Shown here piece by piece: positions 59-56,629 of a stretch of DNA of 64,000 nt. Every line of letters begins with the position of its first letter. Within the stretch, counting starts at the first letter, position 1. The DNA is taken from assembly GCA_958418815.1 (NCBI GenBank), contig CATZGB010000015.1, forward strand, positions 113 to 64,112, written 5' to 3'. This stretch comes from an uncultured Bacteroidales bacterium (lineage in GTDB: Bacteria; Bacteroidota; Bacteroidia; Bacteroidales; Muribaculaceae). A program made the translations under genes and the position numbers. The notes below the pieces were generated by a model that saw nothing but the letters and a program-made list of their open reading frames with translations, was not told where the DNA came from and did not search any database.

Positions 59-66
59 TTTTCAAG

Positions 67-139
67 TGATCCGCCTGGGGCTCGAACCCAGGACCCCAAC
101 ATTAAAAGTGTTGTGCTCTACCAGCTGAGCTAGCGAATC
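67..139 (-). tRNA. tRNA-Lys, anticodon UUU
   Basis: The reverse complement folds as a cloverleaf. Acceptor GATTCGC/GCGGATC has one G-U. D-arm is GCTCAGCTGGTAGAGC. Anticodon stem CAACA/TGTTG carries loop CTTTTAA. T-arm is CTGGGTTCGAGCCCCAG. Discriminator is A and no CCA is encoded. Confidence 0.9.
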
Positions 140-4483: not shown

Positions 4484-6181
4484 TCAGAAACGGTAGCCGA
4501 TGGTGGCCACGATTTGCGAGCTGTTGTCGGTCAGCTTTGCTGTCGGGGCCTGTGTCCAGACCAAGTCATAGTCGACAAAGGGGGTGAACGCATTGAACGT
4601 CGACGTGCGGTGCTTGTTGACATACGCCAGGTCGAAGTAGAATCCGTTGACCTTGTAGCCCAGGCCGCATGTGATGTAGCGCGTCGCGTTGTTGACATTG
4701 TATGACGGGTTCATACCGGCGGTCGAGACCTCCATGCCCGACTTGTTGAGGTCGGTGTTGGCGTTTTCAAGTTCTGTGCCAGAGGCGGTGGAGGTGTGGC
4801 TGTAGCCCGCGCGCAAAGAGAGCTGTGGGGTCAATCTGTACTCGGCACCCACCCTGATGGTGCTTGTGCCTTTATAATACCGGGCGATGTTGTCGTTGTT
4901 GAGCGTCATCGCGTCTCCTCCGCTGTATTTGAGCTTCATATCTCCATAAGCGTCATACTGGTAGTCGACGCTGAGTATCGCGCGTCCGCCGATGACACCG
5001 GCCACACCGGCCATTAGCTTCCATGGAGTGTTGAGGGCGAACTGGTAGTCATCCCAGGGGGTAGACTCCGAACCGCTGAACTTGTAGGAGGGGTTTGCTG
5101 TGGAAAAGTTGAAGGCGGTGACACCGTAGCTCGACGAGTTCAAAGTGTAATAGGTAGGCGTATGCACGGCCACACCGATTCTCAACTCGTTTATCGGCTT
5201 TATGATGGCTCCCACCTTGAAGTTGGCTCCTGTTCCTGAAATCTTCTTGAAAGAATACAGGTCGGAATGGTTGGCTGTGCCGAGTTGATATCCGGCAGGA
5301 TAATTCGGGACCAGCGCGCGATCGATTTGCTCGCTGTAACGGTATTCCTGTGTGTAATCGAGGTCGGTGATACCTACCCCTATGCCCCAGTAGACGAGAT
5401 TCATGATGCTTCCGCCGAGGGAGATGTTGTATTCATCGGCGTGTCCTGTCTCGCGTATCTGGAAGTCAGCCGCGCCGGTCGAGGCGGCCACCTTGTTGCC
5501 CTGGGCGTCGGTGCCGCCGTGCTGCCACAAGCCTCGATACTGGCTGTCCTCATATATCACGTTGCCGTCAGTATATGTCTCGGCATTGATCATGCCTGAG
5601 TTGTAAAAAAGGACGCTCATCCAGTCGGGCGCGTTGTAGTCGTAATTGTTGTAAGGATAGAGATCTTTGCCGTCAGCTCCTACAGCCCACAGCGAAGACG
5701 GGTCGACCCCGTTGGTGATAGCCGCTATGTAGTTTGACAGCGAAGTCTGCATACTGCCGAGCCCACCGGTGTAGGTGCGGTTGAAGCGGTACAGGCGGTT
5801 GTATGTGAATCCCCATGACACACTGTTGTCGCGGTTCTCGCCGAAAAGCATCGTGCCGACATATCCAGCACTGTTGAGGTTGGCGAGGGTGGAGCTCTGG
5901 GAGTTCACGCCGCCGTCCCATTGCGTCTTGTTGGAATTCAGGTCTATGCCGAGGGTGAGGCCGATGTCGCTGCCGCGATACATGCCGATGCCTGCCGGGT
6001 TCTGTCCCACGGCAGAGATGTCAGCCCCGAGGGCGGTGAAGGCCCCGGCCATTGACATGAATCGTGCAGAGCCGCGCAGTTCGGTCTGAGACAGCGCCAT
6101 GGCGTCAACCGGACTTTGGGCGAATGCCGCCGCTGCGGGGGCTAACGCGAGGGCAGATATGATTAGCTTTCTCATTTTCAA
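4484..6181 (-). CDS. Outer-membrane beta-barrel protein (FadL/OmpP1-like, family uncertain)
   Basis: It has a signal peptide (ALAPAAAAFAQ), alternating beta-strand-like composition throughout, and a C-terminal ...TIGYRF aromatic terminus typical of OM barrels. Confidence 0.6.
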   Translation of the reverse strand: MKMRKLIISALALAPAAAAFAQSPVDAMALSQTELRGSARFMSMAGAFTALGADISAVGQNPAGIGMYRGSDIGLTLGIDLNSNKTQWDGGVNSQSSTLANLNSAGYVGTMLFGENRDNSVSWGFTYNRLYRFNRTYTGGLGSMQTSLSNYIAAITNGVDPSSLWAVGADGKDLYPYNNYDYNAPDWMSVLFYNSGMINAETYTDGNVIYEDSQYRGLWQHGGTDAQGNKVAASTGAADFQIRETGHADEYNISLGGSIMNLVYWGIGVGITDLDYTQEYRYSEQIDRALVPNYPAGYQLGTANHSDLYSFKKISGTGANFKVGAIIKPINELRIGVAVHTPTYYTLNSSSYGVTAFNFSTANPSYKFSGSESTPWDDYQFALNTPWKLMAGVAGVIGGRAILSVDYQYDAYGDMKLKYSGGDAMTLNNDNIARYYKGTSTIRVGAEYRLTPQLSLRAGYSHTSTASGTELENANTDLNKSGMEVSTAGMNPSYNVNNATRYITCGLGYKVNGFYFDLAYVNKHRTSTFNAFTPFVDYDLVWTQAPTAKLTDNSSQIVATIGYRF

Positions 6182-23903: not shown

Positions 23904-24800
23904 ATGCTCGATTTCATCACATGGAATGTCGATCCGGTTCTGTTTCATCTCGGTCCGCTGACAGTGAGATGGTACGGAATGATGTTCGTCATAGGCTTCA
24001 TCCTCGGCTACAAGATTGTCGAGAAGATGTTTCGCAGGGAGGGCGCTCCTGAAAGCTGGCTCGGCATATTGCTGATATATGTCATCGTCGCCACAATCGT
24101 CGGCGCGCGCCTGGGCCACGTGTTCTTTTACGCGTGGGATTACTACTCCCAGCATCCCATCGAAATACTCTACACCTGGGAGGGAGGGCTTGCCAGCCAT
24201 GGCGGCACCATCGGCCTGCTCATCGCTGTCATCCTGTTCTCGATATTCACCACGAAGCGCACGCCCTTCTGGACGTATGACCGCCTGGTCATCGCCATAG
24301 CCCTCGTCGGTGCGCTCATAAGGATCGGCAATCTGATGAACCATGAAATCTACGGTCATCCGACCGATTTGCCATGGGGATTCAGGTTTGTCACCAACCT
24401 CGGGCCTTGGATGGCAGGCATGCAGCCTCCGGTATATTCCCTCCCCTCGCATCCGACACAGATATATGAGGCGCTGTGTTACCTCGGGCTGTTCGGCCTG
24501 CTGATGTGGATGTACTGGAAGAAGAACGCCGGCGAGCGTCCCGGATTGATTTTCGGTGTGTTCTTCATCGTGCTTTTCGGCTCACGTTTCCTGATAGAGT
24601 TCATAAAGAATCCGCAGGAGGAGTTTGAGGTGGGGATGACGCTCAACATGGGCCAATGGCTGTCAGTCCCGTTCATACTCATGGGCATCGGCTTTGTCAT
24701 ATATTCCATGATGGCCCCGAAGCTGAAAATCAGTTATCCCGGCAAATTCGCCGAAGAGCTGGAGAACGCTAAAAACGGCGTGTCGAAAAAGAAAAACTGA
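23904..24800 (+). CDS. lgt: Prolipoprotein diacylglyceryl transferase
   Basis: LTVRWYGMMFVIGF, WEGGLASHGG and HPTQIYE motifs on a polytopic membrane protein. Confidence 0.92.
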   Translation: MLDFITWNVDPVLFHLGPLTVRWYGMMFVIGFILGYKIVEKMFRREGAPESWLGILLIYVIVATIVGARLGHVFFYAWDYYSQHPIEILYTWEGGLASHGGTIGLLIAVILFSIFTTKRTPFWTYDRLVIAIALVGALIRIGNLMNHEIYGHPTDLPWGFRFVTNLGPWMAGMQPPVYSLPSHPTQIYEALCYLGLFGLLMWMYWKKNAGERPGLIFGVFFIVLFGSRFLIEFIKNPQEEFEVGMTLNMGQWLSVPFILMGIGFVIYSMMAPKLKISYPGKFAEELENAKNGVSKKKN

Positions 24801-25459: not shown

Positions 25460-25825
25460 TTATTGTTTTGTAGCTTTTAATTCTGCTATGTTGGATTCCA
25501 GGAGCCTGATGTATCGCTCCTGATTGTCGATGATTGTCTTATAAAGTTTTTCGTTGCTTCCGATTGTAATGTTGGCAGTACCAAGAACTGCAGAGGCTGT
25601 GTTCTCTGAATTGTTTTTCACTATGGGAAATGCGCAGTCGAACACTTTGGAGATGGGTAGTCCACTGGCTTGGCATAGTTTTTCCAGAAGCGCTGCGTCT
25701 ATTGAGCTTTTGTGAAAAATAGAGGAGAGATAGTTATAGGTGATTCCCGCTGATAGGGCCACTTCTTTTTTCGTTAATCCGTTGGTTTCAATGTGCTTCT
25801 TTAGAAGCTGGCCAAAATTCTGCAT
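25460..25825 (-). CDS. XRE-family HTH repressor (CI-like)
   Basis: N-terminal HTH (LTKKEVALSAGITYNYLSSIF). It is divergent from a small Cro-like gene and lies in a locally AT-rich island. Confidence 0.8.
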   Translation of the reverse strand: MQNFGQLLKKHIETNGLTKKEVALSAGITYNYLSSIFHKSSIDAALLEKLCQASGLPISKVFDCAFPIVKNNSENTASAVLGTANITIGSNEKLYKTIIDNQERYIRLLESNIAELKATKQ

Positions 25826-31982: not shown

Positions 31983-32495
31983 ATGAAGAAGATTAAGTTT
32001 GCTATGTTGTTTTGCTCAATGGCACTGTTGTTGCTGGTGTCAGGCTGTGCAAAACCTATGTTTCTCCAACAAATGTACTACGTAGATTACTACTCTGGTG
32101 GTCTGTATGGAAAGGTGTTTATCACTGAATCTCCAAGCGTGTCGTTTGATTATGAACCTCTTGGCTCAATTGTTGTATCCGAAGAATCTGGTTATGTGTC
32201 CAAGAATAAAGACACTTTCAAGGTTCACAAACTAAAGGGGGATGATGTCTATTCGGGCAACCTCCCTTGGAGCAAGGAAGAGCAGGAAGCCGCAAACCTC
32301 AGCAACATTTACCGAGGAGCTGACTATGAATCCGCGTTACAGGCGGCTTCGACAAAAGCCATTGAAATGGGTGGTGATGCCATTATCGGGCTTAAAATAA
32401 AGTCGTGGGGGTATAGGATTCAACTAAACGGGAATAAGCATAAGGACGTTGCGAAGCTCATAATCGTTTCCGGAATGGTTGTGAAACGAAAATAG
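31983..32495 (+). CDS. Lipoprotein, possibly YbjQ/DUF74-like (moron)
   Basis: Lipobox LLLVSGC. ALQAASTKAIEMGGDAIIGLKI resembles the YbjQ family. It is markedly AT-richer than its neighbours. Confidence 0.55.
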   Translation: MKKIKFAMLFCSMALLLLVSGCAKPMFLQQMYYVDYYSGGLYGKVFITESPSVSFDYEPLGSIVVSEESGYVSKNKDTFKVHKLKGDDVYSGNLPWSKEEQEAANLSNIYRGADYESALQAASTKAIEMGGDAIIGLKIKSWGYRIQLNGNKHKDVAKLIIVSGMVVKRK

Positions 32496-32577
32496 CCTGA
32501 TTTGCTGACGATTTGCTGACGAGATTCTGACTAATCATTTTTTTGAGATTTTCTTTGGCAGAATGAATGCTGTGTTG

Positions 32578-32585
32578 TAACTTTG
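32578..32585 (+). promoter_or_regulatory. -7 box TAACTTTG, unit 1 of cassette copy 1
   Basis: TAnnTTTG match. The predicted 5' end coincides with the first helix strand at 32590. Confidence 0.55.
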
Positions 32586-32589
32586 CAGT

Positions 32590-32762
32590 GCTACAACCAA
32601 GGTGATTAGTTCACCCCGCACGAGCGCGGTAAATGCTCGACATATTTTGCGGGCTTTTTTTATGCCCGGACATACCAGCCATATGCGGCTGTCACCGATA
32701 TCATTTGACGTGCTCTTAGGAGTGAACGACTTTGGTTGTAGCAACGGTGACAGCCGTTTTTT
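32590..32762 (+). ncRNA. Structured ~173-nt leader/ncRNA, unit 1 (unassigned family)
   Basis: Helix A is 32590-32600 with 32732-42. Helix B is 32686-97 with 32745-56 (12 bp, perfect), followed by T6. A U-loop hairpin lies at 32650-32668. Both helices covary with copy 2. Confidence 0.6.
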
Positions 32763-32786
32763 ATTAATAGCTACAATCAAAGTCGT

Positions 32787-32884
32787 ATGAGAACAACCAA
32801 CACCATCGCCCTGAGCCAGGGCGCGTCGGCCCGCATTCTGCCGGGCGCGGTCTCCACAAAAATCCGCGCAATCGCTTGCGGATT
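32787..32884 (+). other. Truncated duplicate of the first 24 codons of the 2-TM ORF plus hairpin
   Basis: ATG plus [21 protein letters not shown] is identical in sequence to 33127-33198. It then diverges into hairpin aatccgc/gcggatt (32861-32884). Confidence 0.6.
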
Positions 32885-32897
32885 CAAAAAATCTGCT

Positions 32898-32905
32898 TAC
32901 CTTTG
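32898..32905 (+). promoter_or_regulatory. -7 box TACCTTTG, unit 2 of cassette copy 1
   Basis: TAnnTTTG match. The helix strand starts 8 nt downstream. Confidence 0.55.
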
Positions 32906-32910
32906 CAGCG

Positions 32911-33078
32911 TCTTCCATTTGAAACAGGCGACAGCGTCGCCGTCAGCCAGCCAAGCCGTCGGCCTTTTTTGTGGCCGTAGGTCTGTGGCCTACAATATTG
33001 GTTCCGTCCCGTGTGGAGCGTTAATGCGCCCACTGCCTGTTTCAAGGTGGAATGCAACGGGGAGCGGAACCTTTTTTT
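32911..33078 (+). ncRNA. Structured ~168-nt leader/ncRNA, unit 2 (unassigned family)
   Basis: Helix A is 32913-29 with 33035-52. Helix B is 33000-12 with 33057-71, followed by T7. A U-loop hairpin lies at 32960-32977. The architecture matches unit 1. Confidence 0.6.
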
Positions 33079-33126
33079 GTTTCTTCCCTGGGCAAGTTAA
33101 TATAGTTTCATTTAAAGCATTCCGAA

Positions 33127-33384
33127 ATGAAAACAACCAACACCATCGCCCTGAGTCAGGGCGCGCCGGCCCGCATTCTGCCGGGCGCGGTCTCCACAAC
33201 CATCATCCCGGCCCTCCGCGCCATCAGCGTGGCCGCCTCTGTCATCCTCGCGCCGGTGGCCTACCTGCAATGCGCCGCCGGGACTCCGTCGCTGCCCGTG
33301 ATACTGGGCGCGTCGGCCAGCCTGCTGGCGGCGGCATTCCTCCGCCCCTCGTCAACCTCAAGCCGGAAAGGAGGTGACAGATGA
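33127..33384 (+). CDS. Small membrane protein, two predicted TM helices, basic C-terminus (holin-like or type-I-toxin-like features)
   Basis: 85 codons with strong GC3 periodicity. A paralog at 56172-56429 shows 76 of 85 identical residues. An AGGAGG lies near its 3' end, just before the next ATG. Confidence 0.6.
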   Translation: MKTTNTIALSQGAPARILPGAVSTTIIPALRAISVAASVILAPVAYLQCAAGTPSLPVILGASASLLAAAFLRPSSTSSRKGGDR

Positions 33385-33575
33385 GCTTCCGTTTTGAGAA
33401 GAAGGTCGCCATCACCCGGGAGGTGATGGGCGCGCACGTCGTGGAGTTGAAGATTGATGGCTACAGCTCGGGGTTCATCGTCGTGGACGAGCCTCAAGAC
33501 CTGTGTCTGCTCCGTGACAAGCTCGACGAGTACATCAACGAACATGGAATCAAAGAGCCTGAGACCTATGAGTAA
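33381..33575 (+). CDS. Small soluble protein, translationally coupled (ATGA overlap)
   Basis: 64 aa. The paralog at 56426-56629 shares the core GFIVVD.P.DL.LLRD...EYI...GIK. AGGAGGTGA precedes the ATG. Confidence 0.6.
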   Translation: MSFRFEKKVAITREVMGAHVVELKIDGYSSGFIVVDEPQDLCLLRDKLDEYINEHGIKEPETYE

Positions 33576-33912
33576 GCGCAAGTCTATCATTTACAAGCAG
33601 AAAGCAGCCGGGGTTTCCCCCCCCGAATTTTCCTCCGGCCTTTCAGGAGGCCCAGCCGGGCACGATGACCTGAATGTGCCATCGGCATTGAACGTGCTGG
33701 ATGACTGGCTTGCCCGTTTCGAGCCAGCTGTCTCGGTCGATGACGGCCAGGTGGAGCTCCGCACCACGGTCGACATCATCAACGACCTCTCTTCGATGTG
33801 TGACCTTGACATCCGGGGCGTTGTGGCCCATATGACACGAAAAGGCTATCGTTCTTACCACGACTCAGATGGAGTCCACGGATGGATGCTCAAGCGTGTC
33901 GACAGACGTTAG
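33568..33912 (+). CDS. Hypothetical phage protein
   Basis: 114-aa ORF starting at MSKRKSIIYKQK, overlapping the upstream stop. It has no paralog in cassette copy 2. Confidence 0.5.
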   Translation: MSKRKSIIYKQKAAGVSPPEFSSGLSGGPAGHDDLNVPSALNVLDDWLARFEPAVSVDDGQVELRTTVDIINDLSSMCDLDIRGVVAHMTRKGYRSYHDSDGVHGWMLKRVDRR

Positions 33913-34184: not shown

Positions 34185-34296
34185 CGCACCAATATGGCCT
34201 GCAAGACAGCCGGGATGCATACACATCTTACCCGGTAAACAGGCTTTTTGGTGAAAATCGGCAGTTGTTTTTATTTTTTTCATTCATATTGATTTG

Positions 34297-34426
34297 AAAA
34301 AAGAGGTGCAAAAGTACAAAAAAGAGGTTTGTGTTTGTAAACCAGCTGTTTGCAAATGCACCATTTGCGCACTTTTCGCGCACTATTCGGTTTTCGTACA
34401 GTACGAAACCGGGCACGTACAGTACG
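34297..34426. repeat. AT-rich segment with two pairs of 11-nt direct repeats, each spaced 21 nt (iteron/operator-like)
   Basis: aaaaaagaggt occurs at 34297 and 34318. cgtacagtacg occurs at 34395 and 34416. Confidence 0.6.
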
Positions 34427-34602
34427 GTTTTTGAAAAAGTACTATTTTTTGAGACTGTAATGGGTTGTGTCGCAATGTGTTGCGCGTGGGCGCACCAAAG
34501 CACCATAAAAACCCCGCACTCTTTTCTATATCGTGTGAAAAAACACACACGCGTTTCAAAAGGAAGTTGCAAACATTGTTTCTGCTTTTTCCCCGGATTT
34601 TC

Positions 34603-34610
34603 TAACTTTG
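34603..34610 (+). promoter_or_regulatory. -7 box TAACTTTG
   Basis: TAnnTTTG match 21 nt upstream of the ATG at 34631. Confidence 0.5.
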
Positions 34611-34630
34611 TGTCTGAATTCCTTTTGTTT

Positions 34631-35101
34631 ATGTTAATCTACATCAGTCTTAGCGACTATCTGGCGCAGTGGTTTGTCAATGATCAGGGCGGCAACAACC
34701 CGGTGAAGCTGAGGAAAGGGTCTGTTGAGTCGGGAATACTGGAGGTTTTCCTCCAGGCTCCTCCGGAAGGATATGTGCCAGACCTGCCGGGGGACGGTCG
34801 ACTGGCCATCGAGCTGCCAAACTTCCGCCACAAGGACACCAGATGCTGTTACCATCTGCCGGAGAAAGCGAGGGAGGCGCTGGCCGACTGCATACGCACG
34901 AGGTTCGACTTGTGCATGTGGGACTCACTCCACCGTTTCTCCAACATCCTCCGCAGGCAGGATCATCTGATTTATGCCTTCATGGAACAGCATGGCATAG
35001 AAATCAACGAGGCTAATTTCTGCGCCATCCAGAAACGTTACCAGCGCAAGCGCGACATATACAAACGCGCGCTGCGCCGCAAAAAAAGTTCATTGAAATA
35101 A
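34631..35101 (+). CDS. Hypothetical phage protein (basic C-terminus)
   Basis: 156-aa ORF from MLIYISLSDYLAQWF..., with the tail KRYQRKRDIYKRALRRKKSS. No family recognised. Confidence 0.55.
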   Translation: MLIYISLSDYLAQWFVNDQGGNNPVKLRKGSVESGILEVFLQAPPEGYVPDLPGDGRLAIELPNFRHKDTRCCYHLPEKAREALADCIRTRFDLCMWDSLHRFSNILRRQDHLIYAFMEQHGIEINEANFCAIQKRYQRKRDIYKRALRRKKSSLK

Positions 35102-54709: not shown

Positions 54710-54752
54710 TCCCAATCTTTTCCAATCTCGTCAACATTGGAAAAGATTGGGA
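54710..54752. repeat. Perfect 17-bp inverted repeat with 9-nt loop
   Basis: tcccaatcttttccaat ... attggaaaagattggga, between the two divergent TA modules. Confidence 0.85.
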
Positions 54753-55611: not shown

Positions 55612-55619
55612 TACCTTTG
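55612..55619 (+). promoter_or_regulatory. -7 box TACCTTTG, unit 1 of cassette copy 2
   Basis: TAnnTTTG match. The helix strand begins at 55624. Confidence 0.55.
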
Positions 55620-55623
55620 CAAT

Positions 55624-55794
55624 GCGAAACTCATAATGGTCGGTCCATTCCGAGGAGCCACGGTTAAAGGCTCGACATTCTATCGGGCATTTTTTATGCC
55701 CTCACATACCAGCTACGGCTGTCATATCCAAATAACTTTTGCTCTTCGGAGCTGACTGTTATGAGTTTCGCGACGGGATATGGCAGCCGTTTTT
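55624..55794 (+). ncRNA. Structured ~171-nt leader/ncRNA, unit 1 of copy 2
   Basis: Helix A is 55624-36 with 55759-71. Helix B is 55716-29 with 55776-89 (one G-U), followed by a T-run. The U-loop hairpin cgggc-auuuuuuau-gccc is conserved. Confidence 0.6.
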
Positions 55795-55820
55795 CTGTCT
55801 AACGCGAAACTCATAACAGT

Positions 55821-55924
55821 ATGGAATCCAAAACAACCAACACCATCGCCCTGAGCCAGGGCGCGCCGGCCCGCATCCTGCCGGGCGCGGTCTCCACAAA
55901 AATCCGCGCAATCGCTTGCGGATT
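55821..55924 (+). other. Truncated duplicate of the 2-TM ORF 5' end plus hairpin (copy 2)
   Basis: Same ~70-nt element and same aatccgc/gcggatt hairpin (55901-55924) as at 32787-32884. Confidence 0.6.
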
Positions 55925-55937
55925 CAAAAAAACTGCT

Positions 55938-55945
55938 TACCTTTG
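55938..55945 (+). promoter_or_regulatory. -7 box TACCTTTG, unit 2 of cassette copy 2
   Basis: TAnnTTTG match. The helix strand begins at 55950. Confidence 0.55.
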
Positions 55946-55949
55946 CAGT

Positions 55950-56115
55950 GTTCACCATTTGATACAGGCGAGTCAATCGCCGAAGCTAATAGCCATCGGC
56001 CTTTTTTATGGCCGTAGGTTTGTCTATAACATTGGTTCCGTCCCGTGTGGAGCGTTAATGCGCCCACAGCCTGTATCAGGTGGTGAACAACGGGGAGCGG
56101 AACCTTTTCTGTTTT
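55950..56115 (+). ncRNA. Structured ~165-nt leader/ncRNA, unit 2 of copy 2
   Basis: Helix A is 55950-69 with 56069-88 (20 bp, two G-U). Helix B is 56034-46 with 56090-104, followed by a T-run. Confidence 0.6.
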
Positions 56116-56171
56116 CGCTCCAGAAGAGTAGTTCAACATCTTTCTTAGGTTTCATTTAATTGTTCACCGAA

Positions 56172-56429
56172 ATGAAAACAACCAACAGCATCGCCCTCCA
56201 ACAGGGCGCGTCAGCCCGCATCCTGCCGGGCGCGGTCTCCACAACCATCATCCCGGCCCTCCGCGTAATCAGCGTGGCCGCCTCTGCCATCCTCGCGCCG
56301 GTGGCCTACCTGCAATGCGTCGCCGGGACTCCGTCGCTGCCCGTGATACTGGGCGCGTCGGCCAGCCTGCTGGCGGCCGCATTCCTCCGCCCCTCGTCAA
56401 CCGTAAGCCGGAAAGGAGGTGAGGTATGA
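56172..56429 (+). CDS. Small two-TM membrane protein, paralog of 33127-33384
   Basis: 85 codons. By my manual alignment, 12 codons differ from copy 1 (3 synonymous, 9 non-synonymous). Confidence 0.6.
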   Translation: MKTTNSIALQQGASARILPGAVSTTIIPALRVISVAASAILAPVAYLQCVAGTPSLPVILGASASLLAAAFLRPSSTVSRKGGEV

Positions 56430-56629
56430 AACGTGACAGCAAGACAAGTATGGAAAAGAGGGTGGTGGTGACCCGTGGCCACAAGGGGGCGCGGGTGGTC
56501 GAATACCAGGTTGGTGAGTTCAGCGGGGGATTCATTGTCGTAGACGCTCCATCAGACCTCTACCTCCTGAGGGATGGAATCGAGGAGTACATCCTCGCCA
56601 ACGGCATCAAGCCCCCATCGGGGAAATGA
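56426..56629 (+). CDS. Small soluble protein, paralog of 33381-33575 (ATGA-coupled)
   Basis: 67 aa. Roughly half of the aligned residues are identical to copy 1. Confidence 0.6.
   Translation: MKRDSKTSMEKRVVVTRGHKGARVVEYQVGEFSGGFIVVDAPSDLYLLRDGIEEYILANGIKPPSGK

Follow-up and report, generated by a model that had tools for sequence, protein, structure and literature searches.

A promoter-to-U-run leader with three copies of a variable address ahead of late genes in a Muribaculaceae prophage: a candidate RNA switch

What occupies a 0.55-kb gap between a lipoprotein gene and the late genes of a prophage, where a first-pass annotation saw no credible open reading frame (ORF)? The window, i.e. 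the full 64,000-nt stretch that was analyzed, comes from contig CATZGB010000015.1 of an uncultured Muribaculaceae bacterium and holds host genes followed by a prophage; the leaders and the ORFs directly behind them lie on the + strand. The first-pass annotation had described the gap as two tandem structured units, each running from a promoter to a U-run and each containing two interleaved helices, A and B, that were "pseudoknotted or mutually exclusive". Our analysis bears out the units as genuine promoter-to-U-run structured RNAs and the helices as interleaved; the description was incomplete in that it overlooked a third partner at the translation start. A third copy of the A sequence (A'') is located after each U-run, just before the next ATG, and hence the segment A3' has two possible partners, A5' at the predicted 5' end of the RNA and A''. 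The segments A5', A3' and A'' change together among related leaders. The flanking lipoprotein gene is AT-rich as had been noted, with 43-45% GC compared to 55-63% in the flanks.

Three copies of an address and their covariation

Two types of leader are present in the window. The type-2 leader (unit 2, 32910-33078) begins with A5', composed of a variable address of ~7 nt and ATTTGnnnCAGGC, and continues with hairpin H1, hairpin H2 with a U-rich loop, B5' (GTTCCGTCCCGT), hairpin H3, A3', a 2-nt linker, B3' (ACGGGGAGCGGAAC), the U-run, B'' (a pyrimidine-rich partner of B3') and a weak hairpin, UUUCAUUU(U)/AAAAUGAAA, which holds the AUG in its stem and A'' in its loop. The type-1 leader (unit 1, 32590-32762) displays the order A5' (13-17 nt), a hairpin H0 over the 3' end of A5', H1, H2, optional inserted hairpins, B5', a tetraloop hairpin (Hx), A3', B3', U-run, B'' (CUGCC or similar) and A'', which extends up to position -1 of the AUG.

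All sequence signals listed in the first-pass annotation were found in place. The promoter of unit 1 (32554-32585) consists of a -33 TTTG (32554-57), a 20-nt spacer and the -7 box TAACTTTG (32578-85), and A5' (GCTACAACCAAGG, 32590-32602) lies at or adjoining the predicted RNA 5' end. Within it, gctacaaccaa (32590-600) pairs with ttggttgtagc (32732-42) of A3' (CTTTGGTTGTAGC, 32730-32742). The latter is also complementary to A'' (GCTACAATCAAAG, 32770-82), a direct copy of A5' that together with a trailing TCGT (32770-32786) abuts the ATG at 32787; the A3':A'' duplex amounts to -28.7 kcal/mol and ends at position -1. B5' (cggctgtcaccg, 32686-32697) provides the 5' strand of a long-range putative terminator stem, and B3' (cggtgacagccg, 32745-56) with its T6 (32757-62) makes up the 3' strand and U-tract at 32745-32762. 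Between these segments are found H0 (GGTGA ttagt TCACC, 32601-32615, overlapping the 3' end of A5'), H1 (CGAGCGCGGTAAATGCTCG, 32621-32639, with a conserved GAGC..CGGTTAATGCTC) and H2 (CGGGC TTTTTTTAT GCCCG, 32650-32668), the U-rich-loop hairpin that is common to both leader types. Equivalents of H0 with differing sequence were legible in the type-1 leaders inspected by eye (not tabulated).

Unit 2 would be transcribed from a predicted promoter at 32875-32905, with a -33-like CTTG, a 19-nt spacer carrying an imperfect palindrome and the -7 box TACCTTTG (32898-905). Its A5' (32910-32929) combines the address GTCTTCC with ATTTGAAACAGGC, and ttccatttgaaacaggc (32913-29) pairs with gcctgtttcaaggtggaa (33035-52) of A3' (GCCTGTTTCAAGGTGGAATGCA, 33035-33056), which lies inside the loop of stem B. 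The strands of this stem are B5' (GGTTCCGTCCCGT, 33000-33012; annotated as ggttccgtcccgt) and B3' (ACGGGGAGCGGAACC, annotated as acggggagcggaacc at 33057-71), the latter with T7 (33072-78) spanning 33057-33078. H1 (GGCGAC agc GTCGCC, 32927-32941) has its GGC in common with the inner end of helix A; H2 (CGGCC TTTTTTGT GGCCG, 32960-32977), the second of the two U-loop hairpins annotated in the first pass, and H3 (GTGGAGCG TTAA TGCGCCCAC, 33013-33034 including one further nucleotide at 33034) are both seen in the alignment and by RNAalifold. B'' (GTTTCTTCCCTG, 33079-33090) is able to pair with B3', leaving the U-run as the loop, and the start-site hairpin (TTTCATTT / AAATGAAA, 33106-33132; helix 94% paired) contains the AUG in its 3' strand and A'' in its loop. 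The address of this unit is a hybrid: GTCTTCC in A5' (32910-32916) is two positions off the GCATTCC found in A3' (33049-33055) and A'' (33117-33123), which would fit recombination with a breakpoint within the leader and would predict a terminator-biased fold.

Covariation in type 2 was evaluated on 35 non-redundant leaders, with 500 shuffles. Helix A was 97% paired across the homologues, 12 of its 19 pairs showed compensatory changes and none of the 500 shuffles reached the observed values, while sliding the partner by 1-3 columns reduced pairing to ~45%. RNAalifold independently recovered A, H2, H3 and the B3':B'' hairpin. Two G.U pairs of helix A are conserved (in 32/35 and 33/35 sequences); since these would be C.A mismatches on the opposite strand, it is the + strand RNA that is under selection. 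Direct comparison revealed that the address of A'' equals that of A5' in nearly all of 63 leaders, and five compensatory pairs were counted for A3':A''. Some leaders with only 2-4 differences over 190 other positions have GCATTCC at each of the three sites and others GACTTCC, which makes six coordinated changes. In H3, a compensatory change (GAGCG..UGCGC to GAGUG..UGCAC) was observed in variant type-2 leaders. Stem B is invariant in type 2, but these sequences were retrieved with a pattern covering B, so that this invariance is uninformative either way.

Type-1 leaders told the same story through a different set of sequences. Among 17 complete leaders, the cognate A5':A3' duplex averaged -24.8 kcal/mol versus -11.0 kcal/mol for non-cognate combinations and was the best partner in 15/17, and the cognate A3':A'' duplex averaged -29.8 versus -14.2 kcal/mol and was the best in 17/17. 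Stem B pairs in 23/23 type-1 leaders, with the inner variants CACCG/CGGUG, AUAUCC/GGAUAU and UUUCCC/GGGAAA and one double compensatory change (CGGUUGCC/GGCAACCG), and B'' varies along with B3' (GGCAG/CUGCC, GGCAA/UUGCC and GACAG/CUGUC). The first-pass annotation had named beforehand, as a possible refutation, homologous loci whose paired segments do not change together; the paired segments do change together. The three-way covariation, together with a fourth, local partner in the type-1 leaders, speaks clearly for alternative RNA folds.

The nucleotide between H3 and A3' (nucleotide X; 33034 and 56068 in the window, alignment column 138) is A or T and always matches address position 5. This match holds for 15 distinct addresses (6 A/A and 9 T/T), and the nucleotide tracks no other address position; a variant leader (L048, at 3936; L numbers denote related loci) has G there. 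Nucleotide X may form a base triple or a fourth alternative pairing in the terminator loop.

Chance does not account for these signals. The helix A 13-mer of unit 1 occurs three times in the window versus 0.18 expected, and that of the type-1 unit in a second cassette at ~55.6 kb has three exact occurrences and one 1-mismatch site versus 0.06 expected; taken together with the 97% pairing and its compensatory changes, these counts exceed chance. A search of the window for further type-1 address copies, as trans targets or a 3' fold-back partner, yielded only that 1-mismatch 13-mer, GCGAAGCTCATAA at 32451-32463, which lies within the end of the lipoprotein gene, 23 kb away from the type-1 A5' of the second cassette that it resembles (~0.06 expected by chance). 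A protein-coding reading of the 0.55-kb gap was rejected, because the conserved stretches show no variation at any codon position and their covariation is that of RNA helices.

In all, 131 type-2 cassettes were found on 101 viral or genomic contigs, along with 23 type-1 leaders. An exact pattern of the 25-nt type-2 core matched 91 IMG/VR stretches and 18 stretches of Bacteroidales genomes, the hosts of the latter including Muribaculaceae, Barnesiella/Porphyromonadaceae, Bacteroides timonensis, B. bouchesdurhonensis and Phocaeicola vulgatus. The equivalent pattern for the type-1 H1-H2 region was too strict (three viral stretches only), and a triple-repeat script run on the fetched loci recovered many type-1 leaders as well as type-2 variants with altered B and H3. 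A type-2 covariance model (R1) recovered both full copies expected in the window and no others (E 1e-39 and 5e-42), and in the type-1 units it matched only the common H2. Among GenBank phages, blastn identified one unannotated record, MT835542.

The first-pass annotation had treated the two units as equal copies that jointly feed a small ORF with two transmembrane segments. This did not hold. In IMGVR_UViG_3300045988_128205 the ORF occurs twice, ~20 kb apart, once behind a unit-2-type leader alone and once behind a unit-1-type leader alone; the two are therefore paralogous leader types, each of which suffices by itself before a full ORF. The proposed tie between the cassette and this particular ORF was likewise not upheld, as the same leader precedes many different first ORFs.

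The view that the architecture fits no described family stood. Rfam 15 at gathering thresholds over the whole window returned tRNA-Lys (match at 67-139) only, with the thresholds of C4 (RF01695, the C4 RNA of phages P1 and P7) and IsrK (RF01394) not reached, and relaxing the search to E<=10 over 32400-33700 gave only sub-threshold chance matches, the best being SNORD15 at E 0.16. The exclusion of a retron msr/msd also stood, a reverse transcriptase domain being present in 0 of 40 ORFs scanned, including those around both cassettes. As regards a riboswitch, an expression platform is present; the type-2 core (B5'-H3) is absent from type 1, with only H2 in common, and the fast-changing closing helix is atypical. 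In the literature searched, with the core sequence itself among the queries, we found no published description of the element and none of late-gene control in temperate Bacteroidales phages.

Stem B has the features of an intrinsic terminator, namely a GC-rich stem of 12-15 bp (-17 to -27 kcal/mol) directly before a U-tract, and a U-rich tail follows in 20/23 type-1 leaders and 35/35 aligned type-2 leaders. It is not a short-loop terminator, for its loop of ~45-50 nt holds H3 or Hx together with A3'. To say of the U-run helix, as the first-pass annotation did, that it never forms a compact hairpin goes slightly too far, in that unit 1, and only unit 1, allows a weak compact alternative, AACGGT/GCCGTT plus the T-run. 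Three type-1 leaders (L049, L059 and L090) have the U-run after B3' replaced by an inserted hairpin (UUCGUGUAUC..GAUACACGAGAA) and keep B5':B3', B'' and A''; these may depend on masking of the translation start alone. Compact conventional terminators (AAGCGGAAC..GTTCCGCTT followed by TTTGTTTT) were seen by eye, uncounted, upstream of several cassette promoters, e.g. L029, L035 and L073, and their stem resembles the GCGGAAC of B3'.

The type-2 promoter displays a -33 TT(T)G, a 19-20 nt spacer and the motif nAnnTTTG in 56/56 distinct promoters. Palindromes (GGATT-N6-AATCC, AATCCGC..GCGGATT and CCGGTTCCGG) are situated within or just upstream of cassette promoters or over the -33 element, at 32861-32884 and ~54710-54725 in the window, in L004, L006 and L028, and at ~2745-2760 of L001. 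They could be operators, bound by a regulator that controls initiation.

A candidate switch on its own transcript

With moderate confidence, we read each unit as a 5' leader that heads a late transcription unit in a temperate Bacteroidales phage and acts as an RNA conformational switch on its own transcript. This reading builds on what can be seen directly, namely a covariation that links three segments, the two helices, a promoter and a U-run, and a location where blocks of late genes begin. RNA made from the host-type promoter would begin at A5'; A3' would sit in the loop of B5':B3', and A'' immediately 5' of the AUG. As a shared element with one partner at a time, A3' would give rise to three states: (i) A5':A3' forms a rigid helix of 13-21 bp, stem B is open, polymerase reads through, A'' and the AUG are free and the gene is on, (ii) A5' is unavailable, B5':B3' closes and transcription ends at the U-run, yielding an RNA of ~170 nt, and (iii) in a read-through RNA lacking A5':A3', A3':A'' forms, B3':B'' stacks inside it and the initiation region is masked. 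Helix A would accordingly be an antiterminator and stem B the terminator, and a single decision, whether or not the 5' end captures A3', would set both transcription and translation. The trigger might be a 5' end that is sequestered or processed, a protein of the phage that acts on the invariant H2/H3, or the short RNA acting on nascent copies.

Nested folding, from which pseudoknots are excluded and which hence cannot settle exclusivity versus a partial pseudoknot, made the A state more stable than the B state by 4-17 kcal/mol in five of six short RNAs (overall gap range 0-17). The sixth is unit 2 of the window, whose minimum-energy structure is the terminator fold on account of the two address mismatches in its A5'. 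For full-length type-1 leaders, the minimum-energy fold alternates between A5':A3' and A3':A'' from member to member, and A3':A'' is systematically stronger because A5' has G.U wobbles or a terminal mismatch. The minimum for full-length type-2 leaders comprises helix A, the B3':B'' hairpin with the U-run as its loop, and the start-site hairpin. Since B5' is tied via H3 to the inner end of A and B3' leaves from the outer end, we would expect a steric clash between stem B and a helix A of the full 21 bp.

Several points weigh against such a cis-acting switch. The start sites, 3' ends and read-through are all predicted. Simple nested models predict that the A state forms first and also has the lower energy, so that the terminator would be rare unless A5' is blocked. 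Termination is not universal, given the three type-1 members that have a hairpin in place of the U-run. The greater strength of A3':A'' relative to A5':A3' in type 1 implies that a read-through RNA might relax to the masked state, so that a kinetic argument is needed. An address-only, partial helix A could coexist with stem B as a pseudoknot, in which case A5' would stabilize the terminator. Finally, a purely cis mechanism by itself leaves the rapid evolution of the address unexplained.

The general kind of device is known from attenuators and self-targeting leader RNAs. What is new lies in the architecture: the address is present in three copies, the antisense segment sits in the loop of the putative terminator, B has a triple of its own, and one phage can carry several orthogonal copies. 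As an abundant element that heads head and tail gene blocks, the leader constitutes a concrete, testable candidate for late-gene control in temperate Bacteroidales phages. The addresses, at least 19 in type 2 and nearly unique to each leader in type 1, would be ready-made orthogonal riboregulators for engineering gut Bacteroides.

Competing explanations and known systems

The evolution of the address is what a trans-acting role would explain. We consider it possible, though doubtful, that the leader produces an antisense immunity RNA whose A3', displayed in the B loop, pairs with nascent A5' to cause termination and with read-through A'' to block translation, both in its own prophage and in an incoming phage of the same address. 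The variable address would then tentatively be a heteroimmunity determinant, with an action like that of the CI RNA of phage P4 on seqA and seqC and of c4 in P1 and P7. In P4, the antisense segment lies on the leader of the operon that it controls, with the complementary copies seqA and seqC on either side, and the output is premature termination and blocked expression (PMC4825925). Our leader has this same layout, with direct copies flanking an antisense segment on one transcript (A5' - A3' - A''), and we propose the same output for it. The address also diverges far faster than the rest of the leader, at three sites jointly, and the promoter resembles a strong host promoter, so that a short RNA could be made in lysogens. 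In the C4 RNAs, specificity segments differ between heteroimmune relatives. The 131 type-2 cassettes carry 19 addresses; 28 contigs have more than one cassette and 0 of 33 within-contig pairs have the same address versus 3.4 expected (P ~0.03), a figure that is only suggestive, as the contigs are related and not independent. However, distinct addresses per genome are also expected in cis, for several cassettes may share one long transcript and must not mispair. Moreover, every short RNA carries A5' too and would thereby mask its own A3', and both the processing and the expression of such an RNA are predicted only.

The leader further differs from P4 CI in that its antisense segment is inside an intrinsic terminator loop, its 5' copy is the very start of the RNA, and several cassettes per genome lie at late rather than immunity loci. 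In a second prophage system, IsrK of Gifsy-1, one promoter yields two RNAs, of which one is short and terminated and the other is a read-through mRNA that can adopt two structures, one of them translationally inactive; translation of the first small ORF is coupled to that of the following gene (PMC4825925). The proposed leader shares with it the single promoter, the short terminated RNA and the read-through mRNA with alternative folds. Unlike the short RNA of IsrK, which activates the long one in trans, the geometry of the leader favors self-pairing or repression, and there is no homology between the two.

A related, and similarly tentative, suggestion is that the three-copy address forms a programmable specificity code, by which a short leader or a processed fragment showing A3' acts in trans on late operons of the same address. 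If this were true, it would amount to RNA-based, rapidly diversifying heteroimmunity and operon addressing in Bacteroidales phages, with many orthogonal variants, and an immunity code working in trans would shape which prophages coexist.

The late region of phage lambda offers a different model. There, the host-type promoter PR', the 6S RNA of ~150-200 nt and the intrinsic terminator tR' precede late genes that start with a small membrane protein; the lambda late leader needs no conserved RNA fold, and the Q protein exerts control at the promoter. A lambda-like arrangement, in which a constitutive promoter yields a short terminated RNA until a phage Q- or N-like antiterminator, perhaps bound to H2 or H3, renders the polymerase resistant to the terminator and the RNA pairings are secondary, seems unlikely to us as the whole explanation. 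The units do head late blocks, with a small membrane-type protein as the first gene in the window, L007, L010 and L055. H2 (GGGC-U-rich loop-GCCC) is common to both leader types, and H3 and B are invariant across the 35 type-2 leaders beyond what pairing alone needs, although this invariance is partly an artefact of the exact-pattern retrieval that covered both. Unlike in lambda, it is the RNA fold itself that covaries, and a three-way covariation reaching the start codon would be left unexplained. A Q-, N- or NusG-like protein was not detected in the window by Pfam and PHROGs, though such proteins are easily missed. Both this protein and the immunity RNA could be additions to the cis-acting switch rather than true alternatives to it; a protein antiterminator can coexist with the switch and could be its missing trigger.

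Control of the hok type, i.e. a type I toxin module in which a metastable 5' hairpin and an anti-start-site segment keep a toxic small membrane protein or holin untranslated until processing, appears improbable. Three-way "coupled covariations" are said to be the classic evidence for the hok switch, reportedly in work of Gultyaev and co-workers from 1997. The tac element at the 5' end of hok mRNA initially engages a metastable local hairpin, and its later partner is the anti-ribosome-site segment that would otherwise mask the start (PMC9841398). The 5'-terminal element of our leader likewise has alternative partners, and tac, the metastable local partner, ucb and the ribosome site of hok map one to one onto A5', H0, A3' and A'' (PMC9841398). 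The first ORF in the window is also small and hydrophobic. Against this, the same leader precedes ORFs of 57-65 aa with no hydrophobic stretch evident by eye (L003, L024, L036 and L084) and heads whole structural operons, and it has a terminator built into the switch, which hok/sok lacks. No Sok-like gene or antisense promoter turned up, though no systematic search for such a promoter was made, no 3' fold-back partner was found, and each address 13-mer has just three occurrences in the 64 kb. Membership of the leader in the P4 CI, IsrK or hok families is not supported, as there is no Rfam match and the host belongs to a different phylum.

Invertible promoters are common in Bacteroidales. Inversion or deletion of the terminator segment by phase variation, to which the direct repeats A5' and A'' flanking the whole leader with an inverted A3' between them might point, is most improbable and was rejected, since the partners differ by G.U-compatible changes that keep RNA pairing and break DNA identity, the repeat sequences vary between almost all members, contrary to what a recombinase site would show, the inverted repeat does not enclose the promoter, and the ORFs scanned near the two cassettes yielded no recombinase.

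Second cassette, duplication history and genomic context

The second cassette predicted at ~55.6 kb (55.6-56.6) is a true copy with the same layout. Its type-1 unit (55612-55823) comprises a -7 box (55612-19), A5' (55624-39), H2 (55684-701), B5' (55726-39), A3' (55756-71), B3' with T5 (55776-89 for the strand), B'' (55795-99) and A'' (GCGAAACTCATAACAG, 55804-19) before the ATG at 55821. Relative to unit 1, all three A segments have changed jointly, from the GCTACAACCAA type to the GCGAAACTCATAA type, and stem B has changed from CACCG/CGGTG to ATATCC/GGATAT. The type-2 unit (55938-56183) has its -7 box at 55938-45, A5' at 55950-69, B5' at 56034-46, A3' at 56069-89, B3' at 56090-104 followed by a U-rich run, A'' (GTTCACC) at 56162-68 and the ATG at 56172; model R1 scored it at 173.7 bits (E 5e-42). 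An 85-codon ORF (56172-56429) and a 67-codon partner (56426-56629) follow.

In the first cassette, the stretch 32787-32860 duplicates the 5' end of the 85-codon ORF (74 nt, ~24 codons). Judged from the sequence, the tandem layout is [leader 1 + ORF fragment] + [leader 2 + ORF], the outcome of a duplication that left a 74-nt ORF start between the units. Arrays of n copies of a leader with an N-terminal ORF fragment, ending in a leader with the full ORF, were seen in several phages, e.g. L007 at 4431, 4981 and 5422. The ORF fragment behind an upstream leader stays free of stops through the whole of the next type-2 leader (32787-33377 and 55821-56159 in the window; 4660-5094 and 5095-5544 in L007), in ~48/63 leaders one frame (..SVPCGALMRPLPV..) is free of stops as far as the core, and leader length differences are mostly multiples of 3. 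Ribosomes coming from upstream might unfold the next leader.

Downstream of unit 2, the 85-codon ORF (33127-33384), which has two hydrophobic stretches, and the 64-codon ORF (33381-33575), which overlaps it by ATGA, agree with the first-pass annotation. The 85-aa protein has 32 homologues in the protein database, the single named match being from a Muribaculaceae genome, and matches neither Pfam nor PHROGs. The same searches applied to the two small ORFs and their neighbors gave no families and no candidate reverse transcriptase, recombinase, Q/N/NusG-like or RNA-binding protein. The first ORF differs between phages, and its last codons nearly always bear AAAGGAGG just before the next start. 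This strong Shine-Dalgarno-like motif is located 5-7 nt before the ATG of the second ORF (33367-33374 and 56412-56419 in the window; L001, L002, L003 and L007), such that the first ORFs end in ..KGG... Bacteroidota generally do without Shine-Dalgarno pairing and such a motif is unusual there; its presence before the second ORF suggests translational coupling.

The left part of the window (1-25900) contains host DNA up to lgt (23904-24800), with tRNA-Lys (66-139, minus strand), a class A beta-lactamase-like gene (517-1452), a PIF1-like helicase, mutS2, ogt, dnaN, coaBC, a recN-like gene, pta and ackA. The prophage seems to begin after lgt, and no integrase is present at that end. Its genes are arranged in the following order: an HTH_3 repressor-like gene (25460-25825, minus strand), a LuxR-type helix-turn-helix gene, a 1004-aa primase-like ORF with Pfam matches to a CHC2 zinc finger, DUF3854 and DUF5906, an ORF that weakly matches BRCT in its C-terminal part, the lipoprotein gene, the first cassette, a Clp-type protease domain ORF with subsequent ORFs, a helix-turn-helix gene, the second cassette and a 1528-aa tape-measure protein. 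In other phages, a cassette is found behind the replication block before the head genes, or ahead of small ORFs and a coiled-coil ORF of 615-935 aa, which in size and sequence resembles a tape-measure protein. A second AT-rich patch of the window (34250-34700, GC ~0.40) falls between the small ORFs and a 256-aa ORF (34331-35101) that has no Pfam or PHROGs match, and may be another acquired insert.

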